Positions 20,451-53,216 are shown, counted from the stretch's first letter. The stretch: DNA of 64,000 nucleotides from a bacterium (GCA_028716385.1 JAQUPX010000004.1:49936-113935); one strand, 5' to 3'. A program made the numbers and translations. Notes: generated from the letters alone by a model not told the origin.

Positions 20451-20560
20451 AATGTCCATACTGTAGTTCCGAAGAGGATTATGTTGGACTTTACGACGAA
20501 GGAGCATTAGTCCAACTTATCCATTTTTTGGGGGACCCGTTTACGGGGGAAAAAAAATGA
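20447..20560 (+). other. 37-codon chimeric ORF created by the duplication (MKCPYCSSEEDYVGLYDEGALVQLIHFLGDPFTGEKK)
   Basis: Its ATG overlaps the stop of the 18372..20450 gene (ATGA). Its TGA overlaps the genuine nrdR ATG (ATGA). The first 11 codons copy nrdR. Confidence 0.5.
20476..20522 (-). repeat. Hairpin repeat element copy C (reverse orientation) inside the nrdR start duplication
   Basis: The reverse complement reads GGATAAGTTGGACTAATGCTCCTTCGTCGTAAAGTCCAACATAATCC, and its first 16 nt are identical to copy A. Confidence 0.65.
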
Positions 20561-21012
20561 AATGTCCATATTGTAGTTCCGAAGAGGACAAGGTTATTGA
20601 CTCACGAACGGGCAAAGACGGAAGCTCGGTCAGGAGACGAAGAGAATGCCTGAAATGCGGTAAAAGATATACAACGCATGAGTATATAGAGAAAATTCCT
20701 CTTACCGTAATAAAAAGAGATGGCAGGAGAGAACCTTTTGACCGTCAGAAATTGATTCAGGGCATAAGAATCGCATCCAGCAAAAGACCGGTTTCGATAG
20801 ATACACTGGAACAACTTATAGATGAAGTGATATTGGCAATTGAAGATTTAGGGAAAAAGGAAATAGAATCTAGAATTATAGGTGAAAAAGTAATGAAAAG
20901 GCTTAAAAAAATTGATGATGTAACATATATAAGGTTTGCCTCTGTGTACCGCTCTTTCAAAGACACCAGCGAATTTCTTGAAGAAGTACAACATCTGTTG
21001 AAGAATAGATAA
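20557..21012 (+). CDS. nrdR: Transcriptional repressor NrdR
   Basis: MKCPYCSSEEDKVIDSR...RRRRECLKCGKRYTTHE zinc ribbon plus ATP-cone. Confidence 0.95.
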   Translation: MKCPYCSSEEDKVIDSRTGKDGSSVRRRRECLKCGKRYTTHEYIEKIPLTVIKRDGRREPFDRQKLIQGIRIASSKRPVSIDTLEQLIDEVILAIEDLGKKEIESRIIGEKVMKRLKKIDDVTYIRFASVYRSFKDTSEFLEEVQHLLKNR

Positions 21013-36572: not shown

Positions 36573-37364
36573 ATGAAAGATTTGAAAGTTGAACAGAAGT
36601 TTCATGACTCGAAAGTTCACTTATTCGTAGAAGATGAGGGCGAGAGTTTTTTTAAGATTCCACCGAAAAAAGCCATAAAAAACGATGTATGGCTTAAACA
36701 TTTTCCCGAAATATTGGGCGATTTGACCGGAAAATCCGTTTTGGATTGTGGTTGCGGGACCGGGGCTATCAGCGCGGCTTTAAGTCAGAACGGCGCTAAA
36801 GTGACGGCGTTTGATTTGTCCAATGGAATGCTGAAAGTTGCCCAGAAAAGGGCATCAAGCTGGAAACTTAATATTCCGGTTGTTGAATCTGCTTTTGAAA
36901 ACCTGCCTTTTAAGGATAATAGTTTTGATTTTGTAGTCGGATCTATGATTCTTCATCATACCGAACTTGAAAAAACAGTTAGCGAAATAAAAAGAGTACT
37001 AAAAAAAAACGGAAGAATATTGTTTTTAGAGACACAGTTAAGAAATGTGTTTTTACGGACGTTGGTAGAATCTCCGATTTATAAGATTAGATTTTTACGA
37101 CACGGTTCGCCTTGTGAGAAGCCATTAACGTTGAAGTCCTTAAAATATATAAAATCGGCATTTACGGGTGTCAGGTTTCACTACTTTTCGTTTATTTTTT
37201 TACAACTTATAGGGAGTATTATTGCAAGGCCTTTGAGGAAAACAATACTGGAAAAAATCGTTCTTTCGTTTTTTGTTGTCCCGGATGGGTTTGTTGGTAA
37301 ATATTTGCCGGCATTGAGGAAATATAGTTACTGGGTTATGGTGGAAGGGGAGAAGAGGAAATGA
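36573..37364 (+). CDS. Class I SAM-dependent methyltransferase
   Basis: VLDCGCGTGAISAAL motif I, DLSNGML, FDFVVGSMILHH. Confidence 0.75.
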   Translation: MKDLKVEQKFHDSKVHLFVEDEGESFFKIPPKKAIKNDVWLKHFPEILGDLTGKSVLDCGCGTGAISAALSQNGAKVTAFDLSNGMLKVAQKRASSWKLNIPVVESAFENLPFKDNSFDFVVGSMILHHTELEKTVSEIKRVLKKNGRILFLETQLRNVFLRTLVESPIYKIRFLRHGSPCEKPLTLKSLKYIKSAFTGVRFHYFSFIFLQLIGSIIARPLRKTILEKIVLSFFVVPDGFVGKYLPALRKYSYWVMVEGEKRK

Positions 37365-37510
37365 GGATTTTGGAATGTGGATTGCGCCTGCCTGCCGGTA
37401 GGCAGGGATTTTGGATTGGGGATTTGGCACGAAGTGACACCCCGCCCTGGCGGCGGTTAGAATTTGGATTTGAAATTAAAAGATTAAAACCACAGAGCAC
37501 AAAACAAAAA

Positions 37511-37567
37511 GTCCGGCTGAGCAGGATAACTTGGACTAATTTCCCTTGCGGAGCAAAGTCCAAGTAA
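37511..37567 (+). repeat. Hairpin repeat element copy B (stem ACTTGGACT / AGTCCAAGT)
   Basis: CCGGCTGAGCAGGATAACTTGGACTAATTTCCCTTGCGGAGCAAAGTCCAAGTAA. The G-to-C change in the 5' arm is compensated by C-to-G in the 3' arm relative to copy A. Confidence 0.7.
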
Positions 37568-37834
37568 ACCGCAGAGTTCGCAGAGAAAAGAATGATAGAC
37601 CTTCGTAATGGGGTATTCAGGAACTAGTTGTTACGGAAATAAAAATAGAAAATAGCGAAAAACCAAAGAAGCAGAAAAATAGCACAAATTGAATTTGTGC
37701 CTACAAACTACAAACCTTTATAAAAAAATTACTTACAGCGGGATATTACTACAAAGAATATTAGGAACATTTTTAGCAAATAGGTATAACAAAAATTAGT
37801 TGACAAATTAGTGCATTATGGTTTAAGTAGGATA

Positions 37835-39412
37835 ATGCAAAAGGTAACTTGTAATTTTTGTACCCTTGGCTGTGAAACCTCTTTGAATGAAAGCGATATA
37901 GGCGTCGTAGACATTAAATATTCAAAATCCGGCGCTAATGAGGGGAGACTTTGCAGTCGCGGGAATGCACTGCCTATTTATCTCTCCGCAAACCAGCGTT
38001 TAACTTCTCCTTTGAGAAACGGACAGGAGATTAACTGGAAAGATGCATTTAATGAAATTATATCGGCATTAAAGAATTATAAAGCTTCGGAAATCGCAAT
38101 CACTTATGATACGAATCTGACTATTGAAGAGTATTCACTGGTATCCGAGTTTGCAAAGATAAAAGGGATAACTAAACTGGCATCAAGTTACATTGAACCC
38201 GAACATTATTTTAATTATGTTTTGCCTGATGTTAAGATTGCGAATTTTGACGATGTAAAAGACAGCAAGACTTTCTTTATTATAGGGGATTTGTTCAGCC
38301 AGTTTCCGGTAATAGCGAAAGCCATACTTGACGTAAGATACTGCAGCAAACAAAACAGGATTTTCGTGCTGGATTCGTTTGTTACTTCTACGGCAGGTTT
38401 TGCCGATACTTTTATTAAAACGGATGTAGGTAAAGAGGCTCTTGTTCTGCTTGATATGGCTAATCTTGCTAAAGGCAAAACAGATGAATTAAAAGGCGGA
38501 ATAGAACATAGCGTTTTAAGCGGGGTGTTGAATTCGTTAAACGAAAGTGAAAAAGCGGTAGTAATAGCGAGCAATTCATTTGGAAAAACTACAGACCCGA
38601 TGGTATTTTCCGGGATGGCGCAGTATTTTGCTTCATCTTTGAAAGGCGATAAGAAATTTTTATGGCTTGGCGAATCGGCAAGCGTTCCCGGGAATGTTGA
38701 TTTTAGCGATATATTATCGGGCATTAAAAAGAAAGAAATAAAATGTTTATTAAATTTCGGAGCGATGTCTCCTGTGTATTATCCCCAGATATGGGATTAT
38801 TTAGACGAACTTGAGTTTATGGCTTCCACGGTTACGATGATGCCGGAACTTGCAAAAAATAGGCTTTCATATTTGTTTATGCCGACGACTTTGCTGACGG
38901 AAACCGGCGGTACTATAAAAACATTTTTCGATGGAGAAAAGAAAGTAATAAACGGAGTGAAACCCTTAAGCGGAACGAAATGCGTGGGAGAAATAGTGTA
39001 TGCGTTAGCAGAAAATAAGATTAGCGTAGTAAGCCCGGGGAAACCCGTCATTAAGGAATTGAATTTGGAAGAAGTCTTAAGCAGGGCGGCTAATATGGTT
39101 ATTCCGCAAGGGGATTACATACTTATGGGAGAAAAAACCGCATATCAGTTCAAAGGATTATTCTCCGAACCAATAGTTATAATGAATAGTCATAATGCAA
39201 AGAAATTAAAAGTAAAAGAAGGTTCAGTCGTTGAGATAAAATCTTCGGTAGGCGAAAGCGAATTCAAGGTTAATATTTCCGATAAAGTTCCTGAAAGAGT
39301 TTTACTTGTATCCACGGAATTACCGGAAGCAAGGTCATTATTTGAATTAAATATAAGTTCAGGTATTTGCGAGTTTCCACCGATTGAGGTGAGCGTATGC
39401 AAAAGAGATTAG
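37835..39412 (+). CDS. Short molybdopterin-oxidoreductase (MopB) family protein, formate-dehydrogenase/FwdBD-like
   Basis: N-terminal 4Fe-4S motif CNFCTLGCE...C. Molybdopterin-binding core (TFFIIGDLFSQFPV). C-terminal molydop-binding barrel (VIMNSHNAKKLKVKEGSVVEIKS..GESEFKV). ATG at 37835 preferred over the GTG at 37811. Confidence 0.65.
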   Translation: MQKVTCNFCTLGCETSLNESDIGVVDIKYSKSGANEGRLCSRGNALPIYLSANQRLTSPLRNGQEINWKDAFNEIISALKNYKASEIAITYDTNLTIEEYSLVSEFAKIKGITKLASSYIEPEHYFNYVLPDVKIANFDDVKDSKTFFIIGDLFSQFPVIAKAILDVRYCSKQNRIFVLDSFVTSTAGFADTFIKTDVGKEALVLLDMANLAKGKTDELKGGIEHSVLSGVLNSLNESEKAVVIASNSFGKTTDPMVFSGMAQYFASSLKGDKKFLWLGESASVPGNVDFSDILSGIKKKEIKCLLNFGAMSPVYYPQIWDYLDELEFMASTVTMMPELAKNRLSYLFMPTTLLTETGGTIKTFFDGEKKVINGVKPLSGTKCVGEIVYALAENKISVVSPGKPVIKELNLEEVLSRAANMVIPQGDYILMGEKTAYQFKGLFSEPIVIMNSHNAKKLKVKEGSVVEIKSSVGESEFKVNISDKVPERVLLVSTELPEARSLFELNISSGICEFPPIEVSVCKRD

Positions 39413-39864
39413 TCGTCGATTTAGATTACTGTATCGGTTGTAAAAGCTGTAGTTCAGCCTGTAAACTGACATTCAAGGGTGAAAACAGGATTGTCGTATC
39501 GGGCGTAGAAACCGTAGCTTATTTGCCGCTTGCTTGCAGACACTGCGAAGACGCATTATGTTTGAGAGCGTGTCCTAAAGAAGCGATAAGCAAGGACAAA
39601 GAAACCGGCATAGTAAGTCGTTCAAGTTTTAAGTGCGTGGGTTGTACGAGCTGCATATACGCATGTCCTTTCGGAGTTTTGGATTCTATGCTTTTGAGAC
39701 ATATACCTGATAAATGTAATTTATGTAAAGGCGATGAGGATGGACCGAATTGCGTATCGAGTTGTCCTACGGGCGCATTGAAATTCTTAACGGATGAAGA
39801 AATAACGAAGGTTCAGGTTGGAAAGCAATTTGTGTCACGGTTGGCATTCTGGAGGCGTAAATGA
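39397..39864 (+). CDS. 4Fe-4S ferredoxin-type electron-transfer subunit (HycB/DmsB-like, four cluster motifs)
   Basis: CIGCKSCSSAC, CRHCEDALCLRACP, CVGCTSCIYACP, CNLCKGDEDGPNCVSSCP. 16-nt overlap with the upstream gene. Confidence 0.85.
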   Translation: MQKRLVVDLDYCIGCKSCSSACKLTFKGENRIVVSGVETVAYLPLACRHCEDALCLRACPKEAISKDKETGIVSRSSFKCVGCTSCIYACPFGVLDSMLLRHIPDKCNLCKGDEDGPNCVSSCPTGALKFLTDEEITKVQVGKQFVSRLAFWRRK

Positions 39865-40268
39865 ATAAATGGGCATTAAAGAAATCGATATGGGTATTTC
39901 ATTTTGCGGCGGCATCCTGTAATAATTGTGATATAGAGATACTTGATACGTTAACTCCAAGATTTGACTTAGAGAGATTCGGTATAAAATTAGTCGGTTC
40001 CATCAAGCATGCAGACGTGATGCTTGTAACGGGGTCATTAACTTTAAAAACTAAAGACAGGCTTATGAGAATTTACGAACAGATGCCGCAGCCGGGTTTA
40101 GTTGTAGCGATTGGCGGATGCGCGTGTTCCGGTGGTATGTTTGCGGATGCATATTCCGTAGTAGGACCATTTGACAAATGGGTGCCTGTTTCTGCGTATA
40201 TTCCCGGTTGTCCCCCAAAGCCCGAAGCTATGATAGCAGGGATAGTAAAGTTGCTGAATACGCTTTAA
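39861..40268 (+). CDS. NuoB / group-4 [NiFe]-hydrogenase small-subunit-like protein (HycG/MbhJ/EchC type)
   Basis: All four N2-type cluster ligand contexts are present: SCNNCDIE, GGCACSGG, IPGCPPKPE. 135 aa. ATGA overlap with the upstream gene. Confidence 0.8.
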   Translation: MNKWALKKSIWVFHFAAASCNNCDIEILDTLTPRFDLERFGIKLVGSIKHADVMLVTGSLTLKTKDRLMRIYEQMPQPGLVVAIGGCACSGGMFADAYSVVGPFDKWVPVSAYIPGCPPKPEAMIAGIVKLLNTL

Positions 40269-40525
40269 TAAAGGGCGAGAAGAAAATTCAGACAAGAACC
40301 ACAAAAGAGAAACCACCTACCAAACAGACTGGCAGGCAGGCAAGATTACACAAGATTTCCACAAGAAAAAACAGAAAAATACAAAAAATTAGCCACGGAT
40401 AAAAGACACGGATTTTCACGGATAAAAAGGGATTAAGACAGAAACCCAAATAACAAAAGGAGCAAAAAATGGAAAATAGGACAGGATTAACAGAAAAGAG
40501 AGGAAAGAGTAAACAAAGAAAAGGA
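40269..40525 (+). repeat. T-poor purine/cytosine low-complexity tract with CACGGAT-type words
   Basis: AGCCACGGATAAAAGACACGGATTTTCACGGATAAAAAG, GGCAGGCAGGCAAG, long A/G runs. Related tracts at 30062-30235, 36340-36560 and 37470-37600. Confidence 0.7.
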
Positions 40526-42004
40526 TTAGCCGCAGTTGATGAATTTTTCTATGTATTTTTGAATGTCTTCAGGAGTAGTACCCAAATCTTTATCGTCAAA
40601 AGATTCAAGTTGTTTTATTAATCCGTCAATGATTTTCTGACTGAAGACATTATGTTCAATGTAAATACTTTCCTGTTTTTTTAGTCTTTGCGCGGATTCT
40701 TTGCAGGAGACGGGAAGATGTTTTAGTTCATTTCGTTTTTCACTTTTGAATATGTTCTTATCAACATAAAGGTCTTGAGTTGTTTGTAAGGAAGTATCGT
40801 TCATTAAACCGTGTCTTGCAGCGACTGCAATACCTGCGAGTAAAAGGTGTATGTTCGCCGAACCGTCAGGTGAGCGGAGTTCAAACGTTTGTTTTTCCGG
40901 GCAAGCCGTTGATTTTGTCGTATCGTGTTTATTGACTTGTTTGCTCATAGAGTTTTTTAATGCCCAGCCGAGCGGAATCCTGATAAGAGCAGATCTGTTT
41001 TTTTCGCCCCAGCAGATGTATGTGGGAGCTTCCTGGTGAGGAACCAATCGCATATAAGAAATCGGGTTTGTATTCCCGAAAGCGGTAAGACTTGGAGATA
41101 ATTCCAATAATCCGCCAATAATTTTTTTAGCGGCAATGCTTAGTTTTCCGTTGTTGTCGAGAGTAATATTTTTGTTGTTTTTAACGGCTTCAATATGAAT
41201 ATGTAAACCTGTTCCTGCATGATTGAAAGCTAATTTAGGAGCAAAGGTAATCCCGACTCCGTATTTTGCGGAGATATTTCGCATAATCCATTTGGCAATA
41301 ACGATATGGTCTGCCATATCTTCAAGAGGTTCGGGGAGAAATTCAATTTCATACTGCTCAAAGCTTTTCCCGCTTAACGTTATGTTCCCGACTTCGGAAT
41401 GTGCATATTTTACTTTGGCTCCGATAGATGAGATAGTGTGAAGAATTTCGTCTCTCATATCCCCGAATTTTACGAAAGGAGAGCTTTCGTGGTAGTTTTT
41501 TTGAGGGATTCCGGGAAACCGGTCGTTTTCTTTTTTGTCAAATATGATATAATATTCAAGTTCGCCGAGTGTATTAAGAGAAATCCCGGTATGCTTTTTC
41601 AGTTGTTCGTGAGCTTTTTTTACGATGTATTCGGGAGCGATATCAAGTTCTTTCCCGTTGGAATCAAAATAGGAGCATAGAATATTCAGAGTTGGCAATG
41701 AGCTAAAAGGGTTCAAAAAGGCAGTTTTGAAGCGAGGAACGACATACACGTCACTGTTAGCGGAATCTATGTATGAGAATAAACTTGACCCATCAACTCT
41801 TTCCCCATATTCCAATAATTCGTTAAGGTGAGATTCGTTATTTATGGCGAAACTAAGGGTTTTGAGTTTTCCGTCCCCGCCTACATAATTAAAATTTAAC
41901 ATAGGGATATTATTATCTTTTATGAATTTTATGATATCTTTTTTAGTAAATTCCTTGCGTGGTTTTTTTATAGAACAGACTAATTTATCGGCGTTTAACT
42001 GCAT
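40526..42004 (-). CDS. Glutamine synthetase family protein (divergent GlnA-like)
   Basis: GS catalytic-domain motifs: MADHIVIAKWIMRNISAKYGVGITFAPK, NHAGTGLHIHI, NRSALIRIP. The ATG at 42004 has a GGAGGG SD (track start at 42031 less likely). Confidence 0.75.
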   Translation of the reverse strand: MQLNADKLVCSIKKPRKEFTKKDIIKFIKDNNIPMLNFNYVGGDGKLKTLSFAINNESHLNELLEYGERVDGSSLFSYIDSANSDVYVVPRFKTAFLNPFSSLPTLNILCSYFDSNGKELDIAPEYIVKKAHEQLKKHTGISLNTLGELEYYIIFDKKENDRFPGIPQKNYHESSPFVKFGDMRDEILHTISSIGAKVKYAHSEVGNITLSGKSFEQYEIEFLPEPLEDMADHIVIAKWIMRNISAKYGVGITFAPKLAFNHAGTGLHIHIEAVKNNKNITLDNNGKLSIAAKKIIGGLLELSPSLTAFGNTNPISYMRLVPHQEAPTYICWGEKNRSALIRIPLGWALKNSMSKQVNKHDTTKSTACPEKQTFELRSPDGSANIHLLLAGIAVAARHGLMNDTSLQTTQDLYVDKNIFKSEKRNELKHLPVSCKESAQRLKKQESIYIEHNVFSQKIIDGLIKQLESFDDKDLGTTPEDIQKYIEKFINCG

Positions 42005-42073
42005 TTTATCCCTCCAATTTGCTTTGTCCACTAGCTAAGTCGGAATTAGATATTTAAGTAGACAGTGTTTTGT

Positions 42074-42129
42074 ATAATAAGTATTTTAGGGGAGTTGTCA
42101 AATGATTTTTGATTAAATAGAAAATCATT
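42074..42129 (-). promoter_or_regulatory. Putative promoter of the GS-like gene (TTGACA-N16-TATTAT) with an adjoining 9-bp inverted repeat
   Basis: Minus-strand TTGACA at 42096-42101 and TATTAT at 42074-42079. AATGATTTT (42101-42109) / AAAATCATT (42121-42129) lies immediately upstream of the -35. Confidence 0.4.
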
Positions 42130-42208
42130 ATCCGGTGATAACAGACTCTAAAATCGTATTGCGCAAGATAAGGGTAAAAGAATTACTTGCCGTACGATTG
42201 ATATCTAT

Positions 42209-43735
42209 TTACTTCATCAAAATTAACTTTTTTGTCGTCTTGGAAGTGCCGGTGGAAAGGGTTAGGAAATAGACTCCTGTTTTTAGTTCTTTTGCGTTTA
42301 GTGTTGTGCTATAAGTGCCTGCCAATTTCTGTTCATTCACAAGCGTTTTTATATAATTACCTGATATGTCGTATATTATGAGTGAGACTTTTGATTTAAC
42401 AGATAAGGAATACGTAATGAGTGTGGATTGAGTAAACGGGTCAGGTTGGTTTTGAAGCGTTATGGATTGTGCTTTTTTATGTATTTCCTCTATACCTGCT
42501 CCATCCCCTACTTTTATAAGATAAACATCGTAACCGCCTGCGCCGTAAGAGGAAGTTTCCCCGACGATGATATACCCGCCATCAGTGGTTTGCTGTGTAC
42601 AATGTCCCCAATCGTCTTTAGTCCCACCATAGACTTTTGTCCACATAGTATCTCCCAACAGGTCTGTTTTCAGAACCCATAGGTCTTTTTGTGTCCCGGA
42701 CAAGCTAATTCCTCCGGTCAGGATATACCCGCTATCCGAGGTTTGATTGACAGACTCAAGTAAATCATACTCGGTCCCACCATAAGTCTTTGTCCATAAT
42801 GTATTTCCGATTGAATTTGTTTTGACAAGGTAGGCATCAGCGTAACCTGCACCGAAAGAGTAAGTTCCGCCGGCTATGATATATCCGCCATCATTAGTTT
42901 GCCGGACGGAAAATCCATAATCATCTAGAGTTGTTCCGCCATAAGTTTTAGTCCACGATGTGTCACCTGAAGCGTTTAATTTTAGAAACAAAACATTTGC
43001 GAAACCTATCCCGTAAGCAAGAGCCGTTTCTCCGGTAATAATATAGCCACCGTCAGAGGTTTGACGGACAGAATAGCCACAATCAATGCCGGTCATACCG
43101 TAAGTTTTTGTCCATAGGACGTTTCCCGACGAGTTTGTTTTTATAATATAAACAGTGCCATTAACACCATAAGAATAAGTTCCTCCGCTAATTATATAAC
43201 CGCCATCTTGAGTTTGTTGAACGGATTCGCCCCAATCAGTACTGGTTCCACCGTAAGTTTTTGTCCATAGAGTATCCCCCGAAGAATTGGTTTTTATAAG
43301 GTAGACATCGCTATTTCCTGCACCGTAAGAATCAGTATATCCGGTAATTATGTAGCCATTATCAGTGGTTTGCTGTACCGAATTTCCACAATCATCCTTA
43401 ATCCCGCCGTAAGCTCTTGTCCATAGCGTGTCGCCAATCGGGCTGGTCTTTATCAGGTAAACATCTTTATATCCTGCGCCATAAGAATAAGTTTCTCCTG
43501 TAATTATATATCCGCTATCAGAGGTTTGCTGGACGCAATATCCTTTATCGTTTTTGGTCCCACCGTAAGTTTTTGTCCATGTTGTTCCGGGGGCACAAAT
43601 AAGCGAATTTATTTTTACAAAATACAAAACTATTCCTATTAATATTAATGTAACCGTTGAACGATTATTGAAAATACGAATCCATAGTTGACGTGGTATG
43701 AAATTTGACGAGCGGAATATAAATTGTTTTAACAT
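42209..43735 (-). CDS. Secreted repeat protein (about eight ~48-aa TKTYGG...DGGYII repeats) with T9SS-type C-terminal sorting domain
   Basis: Repeating unit LWTKTYGGT..D.G.SV.QT.DGGYII.G.T.SYGAG..D.YLIKT...GDT. C-terminal DPFTQSTLITY...IYD..G...GVYFLTLSTGTSKTTKKLILMK. Confidence 0.7.
   Translation of the reverse strand: MLKQFIFRSSNFIPRQLWIRIFNNRSTVTLILIGIVLYFVKINSLICAPGTTWTKTYGGTKNDKGYCVQQTSDSGYIITGETYSYGAGYKDVYLIKTSPIGDTLWTRAYGGIKDDCGNSVQQTTDNGYIITGYTDSYGAGNSDVYLIKTNSSGDTLWTKTYGGTSTDWGESVQQTQDGGYIISGGTYSYGVNGTVYIIKTNSSGNVLWTKTYGMTGIDCGYSVRQTSDGGYIITGETALAYGIGFANVLFLKLNASGDTSWTKTYGGTTLDDYGFSVRQTNDGGYIIAGGTYSFGAGYADAYLVKTNSIGNTLWTKTYGGTEYDLLESVNQTSDSGYILTGGISLSGTQKDLWVLKTDLLGDTMWTKVYGGTKDDWGHCTQQTTDGGYIIVGETSSYGAGGYDVYLIKVGDGAGIEEIHKKAQSITLQNQPDPFTQSTLITYSLSVKSKVSLIIYDISGNYIKTLVNEQKLAGTYSTTLNAKELKTGVYFLTLSTGTSKTTKKLILMK
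42490..43585 (-). repeat. Tandem coding repeats (~144 nt unit, about 8 copies) within the TKTYGG-repeat gene
   Basis: Recurrent ACCGCCATAAGTTTTTGTCCA(T/C)A... blocks on the plus strand. Confidence 0.8.
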
Positions 43736-43919
43736 TCAAACCTCCTGAATTATTTAACATCCTTATCGTTAAAGCTTACATAAATTGAATACATTGAATG
43801 AGAGTTTTTGTCAAGGGATTTTTCCAGAATGACATGGCTTAGGAAATGATTTGTGTAAATGTCCGAAGTTTGAGGTTGAAAAAATAAAAAGCAAAAAGAG
43901 AATAAAAAACGGAGAAAAA

Positions 43920-45302
43920 TTATCTGTTATGTTTTTTGAGGAATTCGGTGATTTCGGGGAGACCACCCTGGTAGATTAGATACCCATCATAAGGTTCTCT
44001 GGTTGTGATTTCGCCTGCTATCGGGGTGAGCATCATTTTTTTTACTTTTTCCAGATTTTTTGTTTGTCCCAAAACCCACCCGAGTTTGACATAAGCTACT
44101 TCGGGAAGCATATTTGCGGCAGGAACAATTCCCATATCCATTAAATCCCTTCCGGTATCATAAACATACATCTGAACATATCCCCAGAGCGTTTGAACGG
44201 TCATATATACGGCAATACCTTTTTTGCAGGCTCTTTTTATTGGTTCATAAAGCGGTTTGTTGACGTGTCCAAGCCCGGTTCCGGCAATGATTATTCCTTT
44301 GTAATCGTGGTCGATAAGCGATTCAATGATGTCGGGTTTCATATTTGGATAATAATATACGATAGAGACTTTTTCTTCGAAAGCAGTGTTGATGGTTACT
44401 TTCTTGTCTTTCCGCCTGTGATTGTAATCGGTTTTTAACGGAGTGATTTTGTCGTTATCAACAAGCGCAAGAGGAATGTCACCGATAGTCCTGAAAGTTG
44501 ACCTGTAGGAAGAGTGCATTTTTCTGACACGTGTTCCGCGGTGGAGTAAGCCGTATTCATCGCTTGTAGGGCCAAACATACAAACCATTACTTCGGCGAT
44601 GTCGGATTCGGCGGCGGTTTTTGTCGCGTGCATCAAATTGAGCGCAGCATCGGAAGAAGGCCTGTCGGAGGAGCGCTGAGAACCAACCATTACTATGGGG
44701 ACGGGAGAATTTTGTACCATAAAAGAAAGAATAGCGGCGGTATGGTGCATAGTATCGGTTCCGTGACCGATAACAATACCGTCAATGCCTTTTTTGATTT
44801 CTTTTCCGATGGCTTCGGCAGTACCTCTCCATTGGTCGGGACCCATATTTTCGCTAAACACGCCGTAAAGTTTTTCCGTATTCAGGTTGCAAATATCAGC
44901 GAGTTCGGGAACGGAGCCGTAAAGTTCGCCGGGAGAGAAAGCAGGTATAACGGCACCTGTTCTGTAATCGAGTCTGCTTGCGATAGTTCCGCCCGTGCCG
45001 AGAAGTTTTACATTAGGTTTTTTAGGGTCATAAGGAAATTCTTTTTCGGGAATTTTGTAAATGGCTTCTTTGTAGGACATCTCTTTAATTCGTTTTATGG
45101 TATCAACGGCAAGACCGACATTATAACCGGTACGAAGTTTTACAACGATATGTTTGTCATCTGCGGTTTCGGACCTCGGCAGGATAATTCCGATAAATTC
45201 TCCACGGGTGGAATCTATTACGACATCGCTCCAGACACGAACTTTATGTTCGATAAGGGTGTCCTTGGCTTTTCCCCGATAACCTTTATAATCGTCTGCC
45301 AT
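43920..45302 (-). CDS. gatD: Glutamyl-tRNA(Gln) amidotransferase subunit D (archaeal-type, asparaginase-like)
   Basis: N-terminal GatD domain (GIILPRSETADDKHIVVKLRTGYNVGL). Asparaginase motifs LGTGGTIASRLDYRTGAV and HGTDTMHHTAA. Confidence 0.85.
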   Translation of the reverse strand: MADDYKGYRGKAKDTLIEHKVRVWSDVVIDSTRGEFIGIILPRSETADDKHIVVKLRTGYNVGLAVDTIKRIKEMSYKEAIYKIPEKEFPYDPKKPNVKLLGTGGTIASRLDYRTGAVIPAFSPGELYGSVPELADICNLNTEKLYGVFSENMGPDQWRGTAEAIGKEIKKGIDGIVIGHGTDTMHHTAAILSFMVQNSPVPIVMVGSQRSSDRPSSDAALNLMHATKTAAESDIAEVMVCMFGPTSDEYGLLHRGTRVRKMHSSYRSTFRTIGDIPLALVDNDKITPLKTDYNHRRKDKKVTINTAFEEKVSIVYYYPNMKPDIIESLIDHDYKGIIIAGTGLGHVNKPLYEPIKRACKKGIAVYMTVQTLWGYVQMYVYDTGRDLMDMGIVPAANMLPEVAYVKLGWVLGQTKNLEKVKKMMLTPIAGEITTREPYDGYLIYQGGLPEITEFLKKHNR

Positions 45303-45304
45303 AG

Positions 45305-47248
45305 TTATTTTTGTTTAATAAGCACGGGCAATAATTTTTTCAGTTCCGTATTTATTATTTTCCCGTCAATTGCGCCTACGAGTTTATGCATTAATTTTCC
45401 CATTAAAAATCTTTCCGTTCGTAGTTTAATGTTTTCTTTTTTCTTTGGTTTGTATAAAGTTTTTTTATGTTTTGCATAAGAATCTTTTATTTCCGATTGA
45501 AGTTGTTTGATGTTTACCGATTTGATTTTCAGGCTTTTAAAAGCTTTTTCAAAAGTAGTGCTGGGCATTTTTTCTAAAAGGACGGGGATTAATTCTTTTG
45601 CGAATTTTCTATTTTTATAAGCTTCAAACATTTTATATATTTCGGGTTGTGGTATATTATTTATATTTATGCCTTCCCTTTTCAGGTGTTTGAATTTCTG
45701 GATGATTGTGGCAGCGGTGAGGACGGGGTCTATTTTTAGATTTTTTACGATTTTATCAAAAAGGGTTGAGTATTTCGAAGTTATGAGAGGAATTATAGTA
45801 TCTTGAGGAAGATTCATCTGTCTGTATCGTTTTTCTCTATCCCATGGGAATTCGGGTATACCGGACATTATTTTTTTGATTCTTTGCGGGGAGACGGATA
45901 TCGGCGGGAGGTCAGTATCGGGATACATTCTATTAGGTCCCGGGAGTATTCTTTCGAAGCCGGTGGTGTTGTTTGCGAGAGCCTGTCGGGTTTCACTGGG
46001 AATACCTTCCATCGCTTCTTTTATACGGATTTCTATTTCTTTTATGGCCGTTTCGGAATCCTGTTTATCGCCCCAGACGATTATTATGGCGTCGGTTGAT
46101 TGGGCGGATAGTTTGGCGGATATGGTTTTCCACTCTTTCTGGGATAAGTTTTTGTTTTTAGTTTCGGAAGATATGATATTAGGAAGGGTATTGAGACAAG
46201 CGATAACTCTTACTCTGTCGGAGATTTCGTTCTCAAAAGTCTGTTCGGGTTGAGTGGGGTAGGAGAGGATATTTTTGAATTTAGGCAAGAGCAATGCATT
46301 TACGAGAAGGTCTTTTTTGATCACTTTTTGTATGGGGTCGTAGGTTGTATTTTTTAATAAATTCGAGATGTTTAGAGTTTTTATTTTATAAGATTTTTCG
46401 GATAGTTTTCTTTTTTTGAGTTCGGCTTTAATTTCGAGAAGGGCTTTCTGACGCATAGCTTCATTGTGGACGAGTTCGGGGATAAGAGGAATTCTGGATA
46501 CGCCTTTAATTTCTATACGGGTGCCGCCGGTGATGCTGACGTTTACGTCTTGTCTTGTGGCGCCGATACCCGTGCGGACTTTCCCGGTGACGCGTGTCAG
46601 GCGTCTGATAATTTGAGCTACTTCAGCGGCTTCGCGGGGATTTTTCATATCCGGGTAGGTAACGGTTTCAATAAGAGGCATACCGAGACGGTCTGTTTTG
46701 TATATCCTTAAATGCCCTTTATCGGATATTTCCCTGCAGGCATCTTCTTCAAGACCGAGCTGGCGGATTTGAATTTTTCTGTTTTTGTAGGGTATAGTGC
46801 CTTCGATCCCGACGATAGTAGTTCGTTGGAAGCCTGTCGGGATGCTTCCGTCGAGGTATTGTTTTCTTGCGATATGAAGTTCGCTAACTAGATTGCATTT
46901 AAGGAGGATTGCAATTTCGAGGGCAATATCAAGGGCTTCGTCATTGAGTGGGAACGGGGGAGTATCATCGAATTCGTAGGTGCAAGCAGTTTCGTGGTTT
47001 AATCGATAGAGAATATTCTTTTTTGTTTTGAATTCCATAAGGGCGGTTCCGTCGTAAACACCGAGTTCCGAGAGAGTAGGGCGCATATGCCTGAGAATTT
47101 CGGCATCGTATTCGTTGGTGTAGCGACCTGCGGGGCAGTGGCAGAAGAGTTTTTCTTTAGTAAAGAGTTGCTGGTGGATTTCGAGACCGCATTTGAAGCC
47201 GAGTTTTTCGTATTCCTTGTCAGTTAGTTCGCCAAATTTTTTTACCAT
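45305..47248 (-). CDS. gatE: Glutamyl-tRNA(Gln) amidotransferase subunit E (archaeal-type)
   Basis: KCGLEIHQQL...LFCHCP, RHMRPTLSELG, RKQYLDGSIPTGFQRT, LGLEEDACRE, RQDVNVSI: GatE-type (not GatB-type) motif spacing plus an inserted domain. 2-nt gap to gatD. Confidence 0.85.
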   Translation of the reverse strand: MVKKFGELTDKEYEKLGFKCGLEIHQQLFTKEKLFCHCPAGRYTNEYDAEILRHMRPTLSELGVYDGTALMEFKTKKNILYRLNHETACTYEFDDTPPFPLNDEALDIALEIAILLKCNLVSELHIARKQYLDGSIPTGFQRTTIVGIEGTIPYKNRKIQIRQLGLEEDACREISDKGHLRIYKTDRLGMPLIETVTYPDMKNPREAAEVAQIIRRLTRVTGKVRTGIGATRQDVNVSITGGTRIEIKGVSRIPLIPELVHNEAMRQKALLEIKAELKKRKLSEKSYKIKTLNISNLLKNTTYDPIQKVIKKDLLVNALLLPKFKNILSYPTQPEQTFENEISDRVRVIACLNTLPNIISSETKNKNLSQKEWKTISAKLSAQSTDAIIIVWGDKQDSETAIKEIEIRIKEAMEGIPSETRQALANNTTGFERILPGPNRMYPDTDLPPISVSPQRIKKIMSGIPEFPWDREKRYRQMNLPQDTIIPLITSKYSTLFDKIVKNLKIDPVLTAATIIQKFKHLKREGININNIPQPEIYKMFEAYKNRKFAKELIPVLLEKMPSTTFEKAFKSLKIKSVNIKQLQSEIKDSYAKHKKTLYKPKKKENIKLRTERFLMGKLMHKLVGAIDGKIINTELKKLLPVLIKQK

Positions 47249-47478
47249 TATTTTTTATAGATGAATAAGATTATATTGCATTTTTTTCGCAGTTGTCAAA
47301 TGTTTTTTTAGGAGAGAAGGAAGAAGTGGAAAGTTAAGGGTAAATAGTAAAAAGTAGGGGGAGGAATAGAACAAAGTGGAGTGTGCGATTTTTGCCGACA
47401 GTAGGGGGTGTTCATAATATTTTTCCTCCCGGTAAAAAAGGATAAAAAGATAGGCTAGATTCCAGTATATTTTTATTC

Positions 47479-47507
47479 TTGACTTAATATATAGAATGTA
47501 TTATGTT
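47479..47507 (+). promoter_or_regulatory. Putative htrA promoter (TTGACT-N17-TATGTT)
   Basis: Hexamers with 17-nt spacing, 65 nt upstream of the htrA ATG. Confidence 0.45.
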
Positions 47508-47535
47508 AAGATAATCAAATAAAAAAGAAAAAATC

Positions 47536-47552
47536 ATCCTGTATAACAGGAT
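47536..47552. promoter_or_regulatory. Perfect palindrome ATCCTGT-ATA-ACAGGAT in the htrA leader
   Basis: 7-bp arms between the putative promoter and the SD. Could be an operator or a leader hairpin. Confidence 0.35.
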
Positions 47553-47571
47553 ATTCCGAGAAGGGGGGAAG

Positions 47572-49041
47572 ATGAAAAGAAGTTTAGTTGCGGCATTATT
47601 AGTGATACCTGCGTTGTTGTGTGGTGAACCACCCAAAACGGCGATAAGCGGTTCATTGCCAATTACTTCAGAAGGGAAAAGTCCATTTGTTAATATAGCA
47701 AAAGAATTAATGCCAACGGTTGTAAGTATTTCGGCCGAAAAAACAGTGAACGTGAAAGATCCTATTTCTGAATTTTTTGGAGGAACACCGGATGATTTTT
47801 TAAGACAATTTATGCCGGAACTTGGACCCCGGAAAAGACGGCAGACACTTTCAGGGCTTGGTTCGGGATTTATCATATCGGAAGATGGGTATATTCTTAC
47901 GAATAATCATGTAATAAGCGGGGCATCATCACTTACCGTAAAAATGATGGATGAAAAAGAATATAAAGCTAAAGTAATGGGAGGCGATCCTGTGACGGAC
48001 ATAGCGCTTTTAAAAATAGATGTCAAAGGACTCCCATACGCAAGATTGGGAAATTCGGATGAGATTGAAGTCGGGGATTGGGTTATGGCAATAGGAAACC
48101 CGTTCCAACTTTTTGGAACGGTTACGGTTGGAGTTGTTTCGGCAAAAGACAGACGGGATATTGGTATGGGATACGAAGACGGTGGAGGTCCAAAAATACA
48201 AGATTTTATCCAGACAGATGCAGCGATAAACCCTGGCAATTCCGGAGGTCCGCTTGTAAACCTTAAAGGAGAAGTGATAGGTATAAATGCTGCCATAAAA
48301 ACAAGTGGCAGTATGACTGGTAGTGGTATAGTAGGGAATATAGGAATCGGGTTTGCAGTTCCTATAAATATGGCGCAAAAAGTAAAATCCGACTTAATAC
48401 AATATAAAGAAGTAAAGAGAGGATGGTTAGGTGTTTCGTACAACGGAGGAGTAACTAGCGATCTGGCAGAAGCTTATGGATTTAAGGATACAGAAGCGGG
48501 GATACTAGTAACTTCTGTTTTTGCCGGTTCGCCTGCAGAAAAAGCCGGTATAAAAGAAGAAGATATACTTGTTGAATGGGATGGCAAAAAGATTAATTAT
48601 AAAAATTTTGCAAATATAGTTATACAAACTCCACTTAACAAAAAAATAGCTGTAAAAATATTCAGGGACAAGGCATTTCAGACTGTATTTGTAACGGTTG
48701 GAGAGAAACCTGCAGAAATGAAAGAAACAGCGGAACCGCAAAGAGTGGAGAAATGGTTGGATATGGATGTTGTTTCCGTAAAGAGTCAGGAAGCAGAAAG
48801 ATTAAATATTAAAGTATCTTCCGGGGTAGTCGTAGCGAATATAGATGAAGGGGCGCTTGCATATGAGGCAGGGATAAGAACGGGAGACGTAATAACAAAA
48901 ATAGGAAATAAAGAAATAAAAAATCTACAGGATTATGAATCGGCGCATTCTACATACGGTAAAACTAAAGTGCCTATTGTGTTTAAATTAAAGAGGGGAG
49001 ATGCTAAAGCAATAGTTGCTTTTAGCCCCAATCAGAAATAA
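47572..49041 (+). CDS. htrA: HtrA/DegP-family periplasmic serine endoprotease with two PDZ domains
   Basis: Triad contexts LTNNHV, DIALLKI, GNSGGPLV. Two PDZ-like segments (GILVTSV..GSPAEKAGI; GVVVANI..GALAYEAGI). GAAGGGGGGAAG SD. Confidence 0.9.
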   Translation: MKRSLVAALLVIPALLCGEPPKTAISGSLPITSEGKSPFVNIAKELMPTVVSISAEKTVNVKDPISEFFGGTPDDFLRQFMPELGPRKRRQTLSGLGSGFIISEDGYILTNNHVISGASSLTVKMMDEKEYKAKVMGGDPVTDIALLKIDVKGLPYARLGNSDEIEVGDWVMAIGNPFQLFGTVTVGVVSAKDRRDIGMGYEDGGGPKIQDFIQTDAAINPGNSGGPLVNLKGEVIGINAAIKTSGSMTGSGIVGNIGIGFAVPINMAQKVKSDLIQYKEVKRGWLGVSYNGGVTSDLAEAYGFKDTEAGILVTSVFAGSPAEKAGIKEEDILVEWDGKKINYKNFANIVIQTPLNKKIAVKIFRDKAFQTVFVTVGEKPAEMKETAEPQRVEKWLDMDVVSVKSQEAERLNIKVSSGVVVANIDEGALAYEAGIRTGDVITKIGNKEIKNLQDYESAHSTYGKTKVPIVFKLKRGDAKAIVAFSPNQK

Positions 49042-49090: not shown

Positions 49091-49906
49091 TTGGAACAAA
49101 ATAGAGCCTTAAAGATGAAAGAACAAAAAAGTTGTGGTTTTTTTCAGAGTGTTCCTAGAACCGCCCCTTTATCATATGAAGAGGAGAGAGAGTATATAAA
49201 GAAGATAAAGAAAGGGGACAAAGAAGCAAAAGATAAATTTGTAAGGTTGAAGATTAGTTCAGTTGTGAGACTTGCACATTTATACAAGGGACGGGGAGTA
49301 GACATTGAAGACCTTATGCTTGAAGGGACTATAGGACTTTTAAAAGCGTTGGAAAAATACGATTTAAGGAAAAAAGTAAGATTTATTTCGTATGCTGTGT
49401 GGTGGATAAAGCATTATATATTGAGGACGATTTATGATGGGGCAAAATCAATCAGAATTCCGATAAAGAAACAATTAGATAAATCTGCAATCAGGGGAAT
49501 GGAAGAAGAATTATCAAAATTATTTGGGAGATTACCCACAACGGAAGAAATATCAAGGGCATTAGGAATTAGTGTAAAAGATGTAGAAGAGGCGATGGAT
49601 TTAGCGGAATCTGCAATTTCGCTTGATACTATGATAGGCGAGAAAACGACAATAGGCGATGTTATGGGAACGGATATGGATATACTTGAGAATAATGCAC
49701 TAATGTCGGTGTATATTAACGAAATCAAAGAAAACATAGATAAATTAAATAAAGTAGAAAGAACGATTATTCGTTTGAGATTTGGACTTGGAGGTGGAGC
49801 TGCTTATACATTGCAACAGGTTGGGAGTATATTAAATCTTTCTCGTGAGCGTATAAGACAGATAGAAAAACGAGCTATTATTAAGTTGAGAAGGACACTT
49901 GGATGA
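49091..49906 (+). CDS. RNA polymerase sigma factor, sigma-70 family
   Basis: Region 2 (DLMLEGTIGLLKALEKYD, FISYAVWWIKHYI), region 3, and region 4.2 (LSRERIRQIEKRAIIKLR). TTG track start; ATG at 49115 is an alternative. Confidence 0.8.
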   Translation: MEQNRALKMKEQKSCGFFQSVPRTAPLSYEEEREYIKKIKKGDKEAKDKFVRLKISSVVRLAHLYKGRGVDIEDLMLEGTIGLLKALEKYDLRKKVRFISYAVWWIKHYILRTIYDGAKSIRIPIKKQLDKSAIRGMEEELSKLFGRLPTTEEISRALGISVKDVEEAMDLAESAISLDTMIGEKTTIGDVMGTDMDILENNALMSVYINEIKENIDKLNKVERTIIRLRFGLGGGAAYTLQQVGSILNLSRERIRQIEKRAIIKLRRTLG

Positions 49907-51204: not shown

Positions 51205-51254
51205 AAGATCTTCCTATAATGTTTTTGACAAAACAAACTCTAACTAACAAAAAA

Positions 51255-53216
51255 ATGAGCAATATAAAAAGAGCAGTTTTTGTAACGGTAGTAATTTGCG
51301 GCTTTCTTATGGGATTTGGCGGAGCAATGATTTACAGAATCAGTCGAAATTTACCTTCCGTGGATTTACTTGAGACTTACAGGGCATTGAGTTCAAAGGT
51401 TTATGACAGGAATAAACGTATAATTTACGAGTTTTATGAAGAAAAACGAATTCCGGTAAAACTTGAAAATATCCCCACGGAAATAATAAAAGCAACCATT
51501 TGTATGGAAGATAGAAATTTCTACAAACATCATGGTTTTGATATCGGCGGTTTTAGCAGAGCAATAATACTAAACGCTTTTCCTTCGCGGAGCGCGCAGG
51601 GCGGTTCTACAATAACACAACAGCTTGCCAAAAACTTGTTTCTGACTTTTGATAAAAGCGTTCTACGTAAAGCAAAGGAATTGATTCTGGCTATTCGTAT
51701 AGAAAGGGTTTATACAAAAGATGAAATACTTGAACTTTACTTTAATCAAATTTATTACGGGAATGGAGCTTATGGCATAGAAACTGCCGCACAAACTTAT
51801 TTTGGAAAACACGTAAATCAATTGAAACTTTATGAATATGCATTGTTGATAGGTTTGCCCAAATACCCGGCAAAATATAACCCATATACTAATCTTGCAA
51901 ATGCTACCGGGCGCAGAAATCTTGTTATTAGCGTATTGGCACAGAGTGGAGTAATTAGTAAAGAAGAAGCGGAATTTGCAAAAAAAGTACCGATTAAAGT
52001 ATTTAAACAGACTTTTGTTCGCGGAACAGGAGCATATTTTATAGAAGAAATAAGAAAATGGGTATCCGCACAATTTGGGACGGATGAACTTTATAGAGGC
52101 GGTATTTCAATATATACGACTCTGGATGGAAGTTTTCAACAAGCTGCAGACTCAGTTGTAAAAAATGGCTTAATATCAATAGGGACAAGATTTAAATCCA
52201 GAGATACTACGTTGCCTTTACAAACGGCGCTTTTAGTTATGGACCCAAATACAGGGGGAATACTGGCAGAAGTCGGAGGCAAAGAATTCGGAAAAAGTAC
52301 TTTTAATCGGGCAATTCTGGGAGAAAGACAGGCGGGCTCCGCCTTTAAACCATTTGTGTGGACGGCAGCGCTTGAATCAGGATATACGCCTGCATCAGTC
52401 GTAGAAGATGCCCCAATAGCCATTAAAGACTGGGGGAATAAAACATATAGGCCCGGTAATTATGACGAGGAGTTTCTGGGGCCAATTACTCTACGTAAGG
52501 CTTTAGCGTTATCAAGAAATTTAGTCTCCGTAAGGCTTATTATGGATATTGGACCGGAAAAGGTAATTAGTTATGCTCGCAGAATGGGAATAACTTCGAA
52601 ATTAGACCCGGTTATTTCATTATCTTTGGGATGTAGTTCCATAAGTTTACTTGATATGGTAACTGCGTATGGAACCTTTGCCACTGGAGGAATAAGGGTT
52701 ACACCGTATATGATAGAAAAAATAACTGACCTGGATGGAGCTGTTTTATATAAAAGGCCACAGTTATTTAAAGACCGTGTTTTATCTCCACAAATAGCAT
52801 ATCTTATGACAAGTATGCTGCAAAGCGTTGTGAATGAAGGAACAGGAATAAAAATAAGGAATTCAGGACTTGAAGGTCCCATAGCAGGAAAAACTGGGAC
52901 ATCCGATGAATATGGAGATACATGGTTTCTTGGATTTACCCCGGATATGGTTTGCGGTGTTTGGGTAGGTTATGATACGCCCAAAAAGATAGGTTACAAG
53001 GCTACCGGAGCTGAAGTTGCGTTACCTATCTGGATATCATTTATGAAAGAAGCCCTGAGAAATAAACAGGTGAACGATTTCCCGGTACCTTCAGGACTTG
53101 TATGGAAAGATATATGCAAGAAATGTGGTAACCTTGCAGGTCGTAGCTCAACGGCTGTCAGAACGGAAGTTTTTATTGAAGGAACTGAACCAACGGAATT
53201 TTGTAGCTGCAGGTGA
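51255..53216 (+). CDS. mrcA: Penicillin-binding protein 1A (bifunctional glycosyltransferase/transpeptidase)
   Basis: GT51 motifs EDRNFYKHHGFD, GGSTITQQLAKN, RKAKELILAIRIE. Transpeptidase motifs SAFKP, SRN, KTGT. Start chosen at the Met before the TM helix. Confidence 0.9.
   Translation: MSNIKRAVFVTVVICGFLMGFGGAMIYRISRNLPSVDLLETYRALSSKVYDRNKRIIYEFYEEKRIPVKLENIPTEIIKATICMEDRNFYKHHGFDIGGFSRAIILNAFPSRSAQGGSTITQQLAKNLFLTFDKSVLRKAKELILAIRIERVYTKDEILELYFNQIYYGNGAYGIETAAQTYFGKHVNQLKLYEYALLIGLPKYPAKYNPYTNLANATGRRNLVISVLAQSGVISKEEAEFAKKVPIKVFKQTFVRGTGAYFIEEIRKWVSAQFGTDELYRGGISIYTTLDGSFQQAADSVVKNGLISIGTRFKSRDTTLPLQTALLVMDPNTGGILAEVGGKEFGKSTFNRAILGERQAGSAFKPFVWTAALESGYTPASVVEDAPIAIKDWGNKTYRPGNYDEEFLGPITLRKALALSRNLVSVRLIMDIGPEKVISYARRMGITSKLDPVISLSLGCSSISLLDMVTAYGTFATGGIRVTPYMIEKITDLDGAVLYKRPQLFKDRVLSPQIAYLMTSMLQSVVNEGTGIKIRNSGLEGPIAGKTGTSDEYGDTWFLGFTPDMVCGVWVGYDTPKKIGYKATGAEVALPIWISFMKEALRNKQVNDFPVPSGLVWKDICKKCGNLAGRSSTAVRTEVFIEGTEPTEFCSCR

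Follow-up and report, generated by a model that had tools for sequence, protein, structure and literature searches.

The two-subunit amidotransferase GatDE has been characterised in archaea, with the enzymes of Methanothermobacter thermautotrophicus (2D6F) and Pyrococcus abyssi (1ZQ1) as the reference examples, and reviews of 2008, 2009 and 2022 treat it, in their passages on its distribution, as an archaea-only enzyme (PMC2330236, PMC2811023, PMC9499178). Scenarios for early glutamine coding have been built on this claim (PMC9499178, PMC2330236). In our literature searches we found no paper treating a bacterial GatDE. Here we describe a gatE-gatD gene pair in the genome of an uncultured bacterium, located in a stretch of 64,000 nt (GCA_028716385.1, JAQUPX010000004.1:49936-113935), which is referred to as the window and whose positions are counted from its first nucleotide. 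We read this pair as a resident, probably functional gatE-gatD operon that belongs to a bacterial branch of GatDE, would work by the canonical mechanism beside a complete GatCAB and is not archaeal DNA. We put the probability of this reading at about 0.72.

Regarding the described enzymes, the account of catalysis in PMC2330236 assigns Mg binding and kinase function in GatE of M. thermautotrophicus to His15, Glu157 and Glu184, and catalysis by GatD to a Thr nucleophile and a triad of Thr, Lys and Asp. As for tRNA recognition, archaeal GatDE is described as recognising A1-U72 and the D-loop, and bacterial GatCAB as recognising U1-A72 (PMC2330236, PMC2811023). Archaeal GatE carries a short basic loop beside the first base pair, and in its place bacterial GatB has a 3-10 turn that reads U1-A72 (PMC2811023). 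Archaea are said in PMC2330236 to encode GatCAB only where asparaginyl-tRNA synthetase (AsnRS) is absent.

The two genes of the window are the following:

45305..47248, minus strand: gatE, 647 aa with ATG start, the tRNA-binding kinase/amidotransferase subunit with cradle, inserted and helical domains and a YqeY-like tail.
43920..45302, minus strand: gatD, 460 aa with ATG start, the asparaginase-type, ammonia-releasing subunit.

They are separated by a spacer of 2 nt (gatE stop TAA, then 'ct', then the gatD ATG), and the translations contain KCGLEIHQQL, RKQYLDGSIPTGFQRT, TGGTIASRLDYRTGAV and HGTDTM. GatE scored well above both NCBIfam GatE equivalogs (NF003107, 575.1 bits with a cut-off of 456; TIGR00134, 493.3 bits with a cut-off of 319.55) and stayed below the cut-off in all six GatB equivalog models (best 166.4 vs 338). 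Its Pfam domains are GatB_N (residues 19-457) and GatB_Yqey (496-640), the long span of the GatB_N match indicating that this domain is interrupted by an insert. GatD contains GatD_N (45.3 bits), Asparaginase (190.4) and Asparaginase_C (115) and passed the equivalog models NF003217 (523.9 bits, cut-off 310) and TIGR02153 (522.2 bits, cut-off 324). The asparaginase subfamily model TIGR00519 was also passed (398.9 bits) and was outscored by the GatD equivalogs (524 and 522). A tblastn search of the genome turned up no further paralogue of GatD or asparaginase. The initial annotation of this locus had named the two genes with these coordinates, motifs and 2-nt spacing, and the open reading frames (ORFs), translations and equivalog scores bear it out. 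It had also named paralogy with GatB or with a stand-alone type I asparaginase as the case that would speak against the assignment. This case did not occur, because the GatB models failed, the GatD equivalogs outscore TIGR00519, and both the GatE insert and GatD_N are present.

Residues 8-639 of GatE align continuously with residues 4-626 of 1zq1_C, inserted domain included (E 3.5e-106), and the protein aligns end to end with the M. thermautotrophicus subunit 2d6f_C (E 1.6e-96). GatD likewise aligns end to end with 1zq1_A (E 4.5e-121) and with the M. thermautotrophicus subunit (E 8.7e-117). H25, E167 and E194 of GatE, which correspond to the Mg-binding His15, Glu157 and Glu184 by the offset of +10 taken from the 2d6f_C alignment range, are invariant in 101/101 aligned bacterial and archaeal GatE. 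In GatD, T106, T182, D183 and K261, representing the Thr nucleophile and the Thr-Lys-Asp triad, are invariant in all 74 aligned sequences. The choice of the nucleophile Thr follows E. coli asparaginase numbering, which we take to apply here. Comparison with the congeneric genome G002 gave ratios of nonsynonymous to synonymous substitution rates (dN/dS) of 0.062 for gatE and 0.030 for gatD at dS 0.35-0.39, values so low that both genes must be under strong purifying selection. The two genes are confirmed as intact, genuine GatDE genes, far beyond chance, and share with archaeal GatDE the two subunits, the full domain set, the GatE insertion and YqeY-like tail, the Mg-binding His/Glu/Glu of GatE and the Thr and Thr-Lys-Asp residues of GatD.

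Upstream of gatE we noted a promoter-like site of sigma-70 type on the minus strand (47270..47299; TTGACA, 18 nt, TATAAT), with 12/12 consensus matches and a -10 hexamer ending 21 nt upstream of the gatE ATG. It is the only site with 12/12 matches among 12 sites in 43500-47700, where shuffled sequences contained 9.3 sites of any quality on average, and by this consensus match it is a candidate promoter. Between gatD and the neighbouring gene for a type IX secretion system (T9SS) sorting-domain protein, a search of the minus strand gave no terminator-like site.

Phylogenies of GatE and GatD with archaeal references separated bacteria and archaea. We gathered 24 archaeal genomes by a 16S motif scan; GatE was over the cut-off in 23 of them, with 358-971 bits on the archaeal model, on which the window GatE scores 493. 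By BLAST the window GatE is 45-69% identical to bacteria outside the genus and 30-36% identical to full-length archaeal GatE, and the window GatD 66-87% and 40-46%, respectively (median identity to archaea in the alignments 30% for GatE and 41% for GatD). GatE trees were rooted with five GatB and built with FastTree (106 rows) and with IQ-TREE under LG+C20 PMSF in a quick search (71 rows), the IQ-TREE sets being subsamples picked to cover every FastTree subclade. Same-locus duplicates and fragments were dropped beforehand (GatE: L001, L005, L006, L013, L015, L016, L022, L024, L053, L086, L090, L246; GatD: L001, L013, L016, L024, L057, L061, L062, L084). In both trees bacterial GatE form one clade (support 99; 77 rows in FastTree, 42 in IQ-TREE) and the 24 archaeal GatE another (support 98). 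A single branch with support 100 separates the domains in the unrooted IQ-TREE of GatD (46 bacterial and 14 archaeal sequences). Several rows deviate in composition, and the archaeal GatD branches are long. The window sequence groups with those of the congener G002 and of G003 and G004, which belong to the same order (4 rows, support 99-100), and this group branches off early in the bacterial clade, as do two others.

The order of the two genes differs between the domains as well. We found gatE followed by gatD in 64 bacterial loci; seven more had room downstream but no gatD, and ten had no such room. In archaea gatD precedes gatE in 14 of 24 loci; the remaining 10 show no gatD within 1.5 kb. 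Lateral acquisition from archaea, one of the two origins considered in the initial annotation, is not supported in that form, as the gene is not nested in the sampled archaeal lineages and its closest relatives are bacterial. Only an ancient inter-domain transfer or common descent is left as a possible origin. Within the order, identities of GatE to G002, G003 and G004 (95.5, 69 and 59%) run parallel to those of the glutamyl-tRNA synthetase (GluRS; 97, 63 and ~59%), which fits vertical descent since the ancestor of the order, with later losses. Compared with archaeal GatDE the pair thus lies in a separate, all-bacterial clade with reversed gene order, and as detailed below it also differs in the host tRNAGln's first base pair (U1-A72 rather than A1-U72), in the GatE loop and tail motif, and in co-existing with both AsnRS and GatCAB, whereas archaeal GatCAB is described only in the absence of AsnRS (PMC2330236). 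By phylogeny, gene order, host tRNA and companions it is not a member of the archaeal system as characterised.

Several single loci stood out in this survey. Seven Bacteroidales-type loci (L027, L029, L034, L035, L037, L038, L039) carry gatE with no gatD in 800-5,900 nt downstream; here gatD is either elsewhere or lost. One archaeal genome, whose 16S contig is titled Methanomassiliicoccales, has two GatE genes, L235 (G047:C11:243900-245792) and L245 (G047:C9:781304-783136), of which one contains an in-frame TAG and one occupies an open frame of 789 aa. L242, L243 and L244, with Aenigmatarchaeota or Woesearchaeota titles, have GatE frames of only 480-495 aa and seem to be without the inserted domain; the match of L242/L246 covers model positions 2-270 and 398-620. 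In a Bacteroidota-titled genome gatE lies in a 1074-aa frame with ~430 extra N-terminal residues (L073:4684-7905), and gatB of the same genome lies in a 1021-aa frame (G089:C41:14514-15944). Both long frames may be fusions or unbroken upstream frames.

The genome was then screened for the companion enzymes. Glutaminyl-tRNA synthetase (GlnRS, glnS) was not found in the genome, the best match (62.9 bits vs a cut-off of 425.8) being the GluRS (gltX), which is of bacterial type and present in one copy (523.6 bits). All three GatCAB genes are present and intact on three different contigs (gatB 566.7 bits, gatA 612.5, gatC 61.3, summed), and the replacement of GatCAB by GatDE that had been proposed as the other origin must be dropped. 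As GlnRS is absent, the cell needs an amidotransferase, and it has two. AsnRS is encoded (509.1 bits vs a cut-off of 342.6) together with an AsnB-like asparagine synthetase (317.2 bits vs 267.1), so GatCAB is not needed for asparagine. ARAGORN identified 51 tRNA genes, from whose drawings we discounted the extra eighth acceptor pair. tRNAGln(UUG), tRNAGln(CUG) and tRNAAsn all have U1-A72 and G73, and both tRNAGlu have G1-C72. Among the calls is a tRNA-SeC(UCA) gene at G000:C1:493893-493987, which suggests that this organism may use selenocysteine.

Relative to bacterial GatCAB, exemplified by Staphylococcus aureus (2DF4/3IP4), GatE is a GatB paralogue, with E values of 1e-16 to 1e-25 for the cradle domain. 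The two enzymes share their chemistry, and the host tRNAGln offers the same features for recognition (U1-A72, small D-loop). The window GatE, however, pairs with an asparaginase-type GatD and not with the amidase GatA and GatC.

A pattern scan covering one genome per prokaryote species yielded 397 stretches that encode relatives of this GatE. We inspected the best 80, all of which have bacterial titles, including Bacteroidales, Ignavibacteriales, Krumholzibacteriota, Calditrichota, Cloacimonadota, Neomarinimicrobiota, Edwardsbacteria/UBP2, Aminicenantes and Omnitrophota. A protein search returned at least 8000 candidates, all significant. Public annotation already uses the name 'Glu-tRNA(Gln) amidotransferase subunit GatE' in metagenome-assembled genomes of Calditrichaeota, KSB1, Aminicenantes, Ignavibacteriales and Planctomycetota. 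The view that GatDE is specific to archaea, from which the initial annotation started, agrees with the reviews cited above and does not agree with these stretches and labels. The pair is a further member of an already annotated, under-discussed bacterial GatDE group, with which it shares the clade and the tight gatE-then-gatD operon. It differs from this group in the presence of a complete GatCAB without GlnRS and in lying on its order's own early branch.

Among 40 relatives of the organism, GatE passed the cut-off in both congeners and G003; in G004 it scored 316.6 bits, just under the cut-off, and is split over contigs. It was absent from the other 36 relatives searched. In a sample of the phylum GatE was found in 21/272 genomes, namely five of the own order, 11/11 of family f31, two of f17 and three of f9. 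The companion routes vary within the order. GatB occurs without GlnRS in the genus and in G004, and GlnRS without GatB in G003. G005 and G007 have GatB with neither GatE nor GlnRS, so that GatCAB alone makes Gln-tRNAGln there, and G006, G008 and G009 have GlnRS only.

We also examined 40 other GatDE-bearing bacteria. GlnRS was over the cut-off in 35 of them and GatB in 10, all 10 with GlnRS; GatB without GlnRS beside GatDE was seen in none of the 40. The combination of GatDE, a complete GatCAB and no GlnRS is what this window adds, as it was unseen in the 40 other carriers sampled. Five carriers showed neither GlnRS nor GatB. No completeness values come with these five genomes, and in one of them GluRS also gave no match, so they do not demonstrate GatDE as a sole route. 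GluRS was present in two copies in 13 carriers, in one copy in 26 and in none in one; a second GluRS as a dedicated partner of GatDE is not a general feature, and the genome studied here has one. In these bacteria, GatDE almost always comes on top of another route.

Several features extend over the whole bacterial clade. The basic loop of GatE beside the first base pair keeps its length, and its residues differ systematically between bacteria and archaea. Position 226 is T in 63/77 bacteria vs R in 24/24 archaea, and position 215 is R in 72/77 bacteria vs G in 24/24 archaea; the tail motif differs systematically as well. These loop differences are a candidate adaptation to U1-A72, as judged from the alignment. 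Across 74 GatD and 101 GatE rows, the median pairwise identity is 72% for bacterial GatD and 48% for bacterial GatE, and 44% for each of the archaeal subunits. Bacterial GatD is thus by far the more conserved of the two bacterial subunits.

The ORFs flanking gatED in the 80 loci clustered into gatE, gatD, antisense or out-of-frame shadow ORFs, lineage-specific synteny and a cluster of the glutamine synthetase (GS) family. Besides gatD and the GS genes, no gene family recurred across lineages near gatED in these loci. A GS-family gene is found near gatED in 10 of the 80, representing about four independent lineages and two GS subfamilies. It lies immediately upstream of gatE in eight Krumholzibacteriota-type loci (L060-L066, L080), and the one checked, in L061 (4528-5952), is a true GlnA with 479.6 bits. 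In L055 (935-2467) and L075 it lies within ~3.5 kb upstream, and the divergent GS gene of this window lies 1.9 kb downstream of gatD. Only one other GS-family gene was found in the genome, scoring 176 bits; with 234.8 and 176 bits for the two GS-family genes, a canonical GlnA equivalog was not found in the genome. tRNA genes were called by ARAGORN in 6 of 78 bacterial gatED loci. In G003 a tRNA-Glu(CUC) (L023:5759-5835) precedes gatE by ~165 nt in the same orientation; it is an ordinary tRNAGlu with G1-C72, and its homologue in the genome studied here is the tRNA-Glu(CUC) of contig C6. The single 'tRNA-Gln' call (L091) looks false, its acceptor stem being mismatched, and a conserved linkage of tRNA-Gln to gatED found no support among the 78 loci.

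The genes around the operon are bacterial, as the initial annotation had recognised from the T9SS, sigma-70, NrdR, Lnt and PBP1A-family proteins, all of which were confirmed by family matches:

20557-21009: NrdR, over the cut-off.
21035-22540: Lnt, over the cut-off.
40526-42031, minus strand: glutamine-synthetase-family gene, divergent, 234.8 bits vs a GlnA cut-off of 429.
42209-43735: T9SS sorting-domain protein, family match.
47572-49041: HtrA-type protease, family match.
49091-49906: sigma-70 factor, family match.
51219-53213: PBP1A-family protein, over the cut-off.

HolA, AccB/AccC and thioredoxin reductase are also among the window proteins with family matches. At the other end of the window, a GlmU-like ORF of 345 aa (1784-3221, plus strand) matches only the first ~315 of 447-452 model positions. 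A 139-aa ORF comes next, overlapping it, and gave no family match at E 1e-10; glmU may be split or frameshifted.

The contig that holds the window is 339 kb long and comes from a 3.27-Mb genome (91.5% complete, 0.63% contamination). The congeneric genome G002 is colinear with positions 36984-47313, comprising gatE, gatD, the T9SS gene and the GS gene, at 88-93% nucleotide identity. Contigs from public runs were compared over 42800-48800. Run X1 may be the source sample of this genome; its contigs of 4701 and 9101 nt match 42800-46945 and 46916-48800 with zero differences at depths of 15.7 and 16.2. A 1004-nt contig from another sample, run X3, equals 43065-44068 with zero differences and links the T9SS gene with gatD. 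Only X1 contigs span the upstream border (47.25-47.6 kb). Contigs of related strains in X2 and X4 depart at 47299 and rejoin at 47521, and the G002 synteny ends at 47313. The segment of ~47299-47521, just upstream of the promoter-like site of gatE, is strain-variable or rearranged, with bacterial genes on both sides. A chimeric assembly, which had been raised as the finding that would undo the assignment, is contradicted by the G002 synteny and by the zero-difference contigs of X1 and X3.

Under the reading that we favour, the single GluRS would charge tRNAGln with glutamate, and in a genome with one GluRS and no GlnRS this enzyme must glutamylate tRNAGln. GatE would then bind Glu-tRNAGln and phosphorylate the side-chain carboxyl, GatD would hydrolyse glutamine or asparagine and pass the ammonia to GatE, and GatE would form Gln-tRNAGln. 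GatDE would work beside the complete GatCAB, giving the cell two tRNA-dependent amidotransferases. As the tRNAGln of the host has U1-A72, bacterial GatDE must accept a first pair other than the archaeal A1-U72. Several observations weigh against this reading. The first pair of the host tRNAGln is not the one that archaeal GatDE reads in the description of PMC2330236, so that substrate use by GatDE, and its action on the U1-A72 tRNAGln of this host, would be an extrapolation from the archaeal enzyme. In no case is GatDE demonstrably the only route, this genus having GatCAB, and G003 and most of the 40 other carriers GlnRS. The pattern of companion routes is as compatible with an accessory or other role as with the canonical one. 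The patchy distribution in the phylum, with 21 of 272 genomes in four groups, makes transfers among bacteria likely at some depth. The 24 archaeal genomes include no titles from Methanococcales, Methanobacteriales or Thermococcales, and the trees come from quick or FastTree searches with Shimodaira-Hasegawa-like supports and no bootstraps. Base composition, whose comparison with the flanks had been proposed at the outset, gave a divided result. GC over gatED in 2-kb windows (0.40-0.416) is within the range of the whole window (0.329-0.419). In codon-usage distance from the genome mean, however, gatE ranks at the 99th percentile and gatD at the 97th of the 1,285 ORFs with 300 aa or more, G+C at third codon positions (GC3) is 0.42 and 0.43 vs a genome mean of 0.317, and both genes are at the extreme of the first codon-usage axis, favouring C-ending codons. 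Such atypical codon usage could be a foreign trace or a sign of high expression. Pfam matches were obtained for 16 of the 18 genes closest to them in codon space; these include GyrA, SecA, Clp ATPase, Mfd, PurL, MetRS and Tex, and no mobile-element genes were among these 16. We read the codon usage as the extreme of a native, possibly expression-linked trend, in which a residual foreign signature is possible.

It is this codon usage and GC3, together with the end of the congener synteny at 47313 and the divergence of related-strain contigs at 47299, that would be expected if the operon had been imported recently from an archaeon or joined to the contig as an assembly or binning chimera with archaeal DNA. 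We nevertheless consider such an origin extremely improbable: the nearest archaeal GatE is 36% identical vs 45-69% for bacteria, bacteria and archaea are reciprocally monophyletic, the gene order is the bacterial one, and the operon is contiguous with the T9SS cargo and the GS gene in two genomes of the genus, as it is with the T9SS gene on the independent X3 contig. Both sides of the 47.3-kb breakpoint are bacterial, GC is within the window range, and the contig is long (339 kb) in a genome with 0.63% contamination. A second question is what the enzyme does. GatDE may have an accessory or specialised role in which it is not the bulk supplier of Gln-tRNAGln and is kept for a condition or substrate, for example for using asparagine as donor when free glutamine is scarce, for one isoacceptor or for another Glu-charged RNA. 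This proposal, which we regard as unlikely, draws on the presence of another route in nearly every carrier (GlnRS in 35/40 and GatB in 10/40, GlnRS in G003, GatCAB in the genus), on the unusual conservation of bacterial GatD (72% vs 48% for GatE, 44%/44% in archaea), on the systematic loop differences at positions 215 and 226, and on the GS-family genes near gatED in 10/80 loci. GatDE of M. thermautotrophicus is moreover described in PMC2330236 as using Asn about as well as Gln. On the other hand, the enzyme retains every catalytic and tRNA-end-binding residue of the canonical form, the conserved neighbours hint at no alternative substrate, and the GS linkage amounts to about four independent lineages with two GS subfamilies. 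Redundant aminoacylation routes are also known in bacteria (PMC4206432). Thermus, Deinococcus and Bdellovibrio, with GatCAB plus AsnRS/GlnRS, resemble this organism in having apparently redundant amide aminoacyl-tRNA routes in one cell (PMC4206432). Unlike here, it is GatCAB that they keep, with tRNA-dependent asparagine synthesis as the accepted reason; in the present genome GatDE is the additional enzyme, and an AsnB-like gene is there as well.

A division of labour as described for archaea with both enzymes (PMC2330236), with GatDE making Gln-tRNAGln and GatCAB devoted to Asn-tRNAAsn, would suit a genome that has both enzymes and no GlnRS, the more so as GatB without GlnRS beside GatDE was seen in 0/40 other carriers and the configuration is special to this lineage. 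We find it very doubtful, however, because GatCAB is not needed for asparagine where AsnRS and an AsnB-like gene are present, because U1-A72, which bacterial GatCAB reads in the account of PMC2330236, is found in tRNAAsn as well as in tRNAGln, and because G005 and G007 have GatB without GatE or GlnRS. Returning to the resident operon of the bacterial branch with canonical mechanism, its deeper history can be sketched only tentatively. Bacterial GatDE could represent an old lineage that is sister to the archaeal one, with both descending from a time before the domains separated or with one very early transfer between them. Its loop would have been re-tuned for U1-A72, and it could have been kept for something that GlnRS or GatCAB cannot do, for instance using Asn as donor to keep tRNAGln charged from a large glutamate pool when nitrogen limitation makes free glutamine collapse. 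We think that this full scenario is rather improbable; if it were true, this genus would have two tRNA-dependent amidotransferases of distinct roles.

For a single window this is an ordinary finding, as the genes are already correctly labelled by public annotation. The locus is nonetheless a solid example of a long-resident bacterial GatDE, contrary to the reviews that describe the enzyme as archaea-only. The facts that hold across the clade, namely the reciprocal monophyly of bacterial and archaeal enzymes, the reversed gene order, U1-A72 in the host tRNAGln, the conservation of GatD and the presence of GlnRS in most carriers, make the retention of a second route to Gln-tRNAGln in bacteria a testable question.

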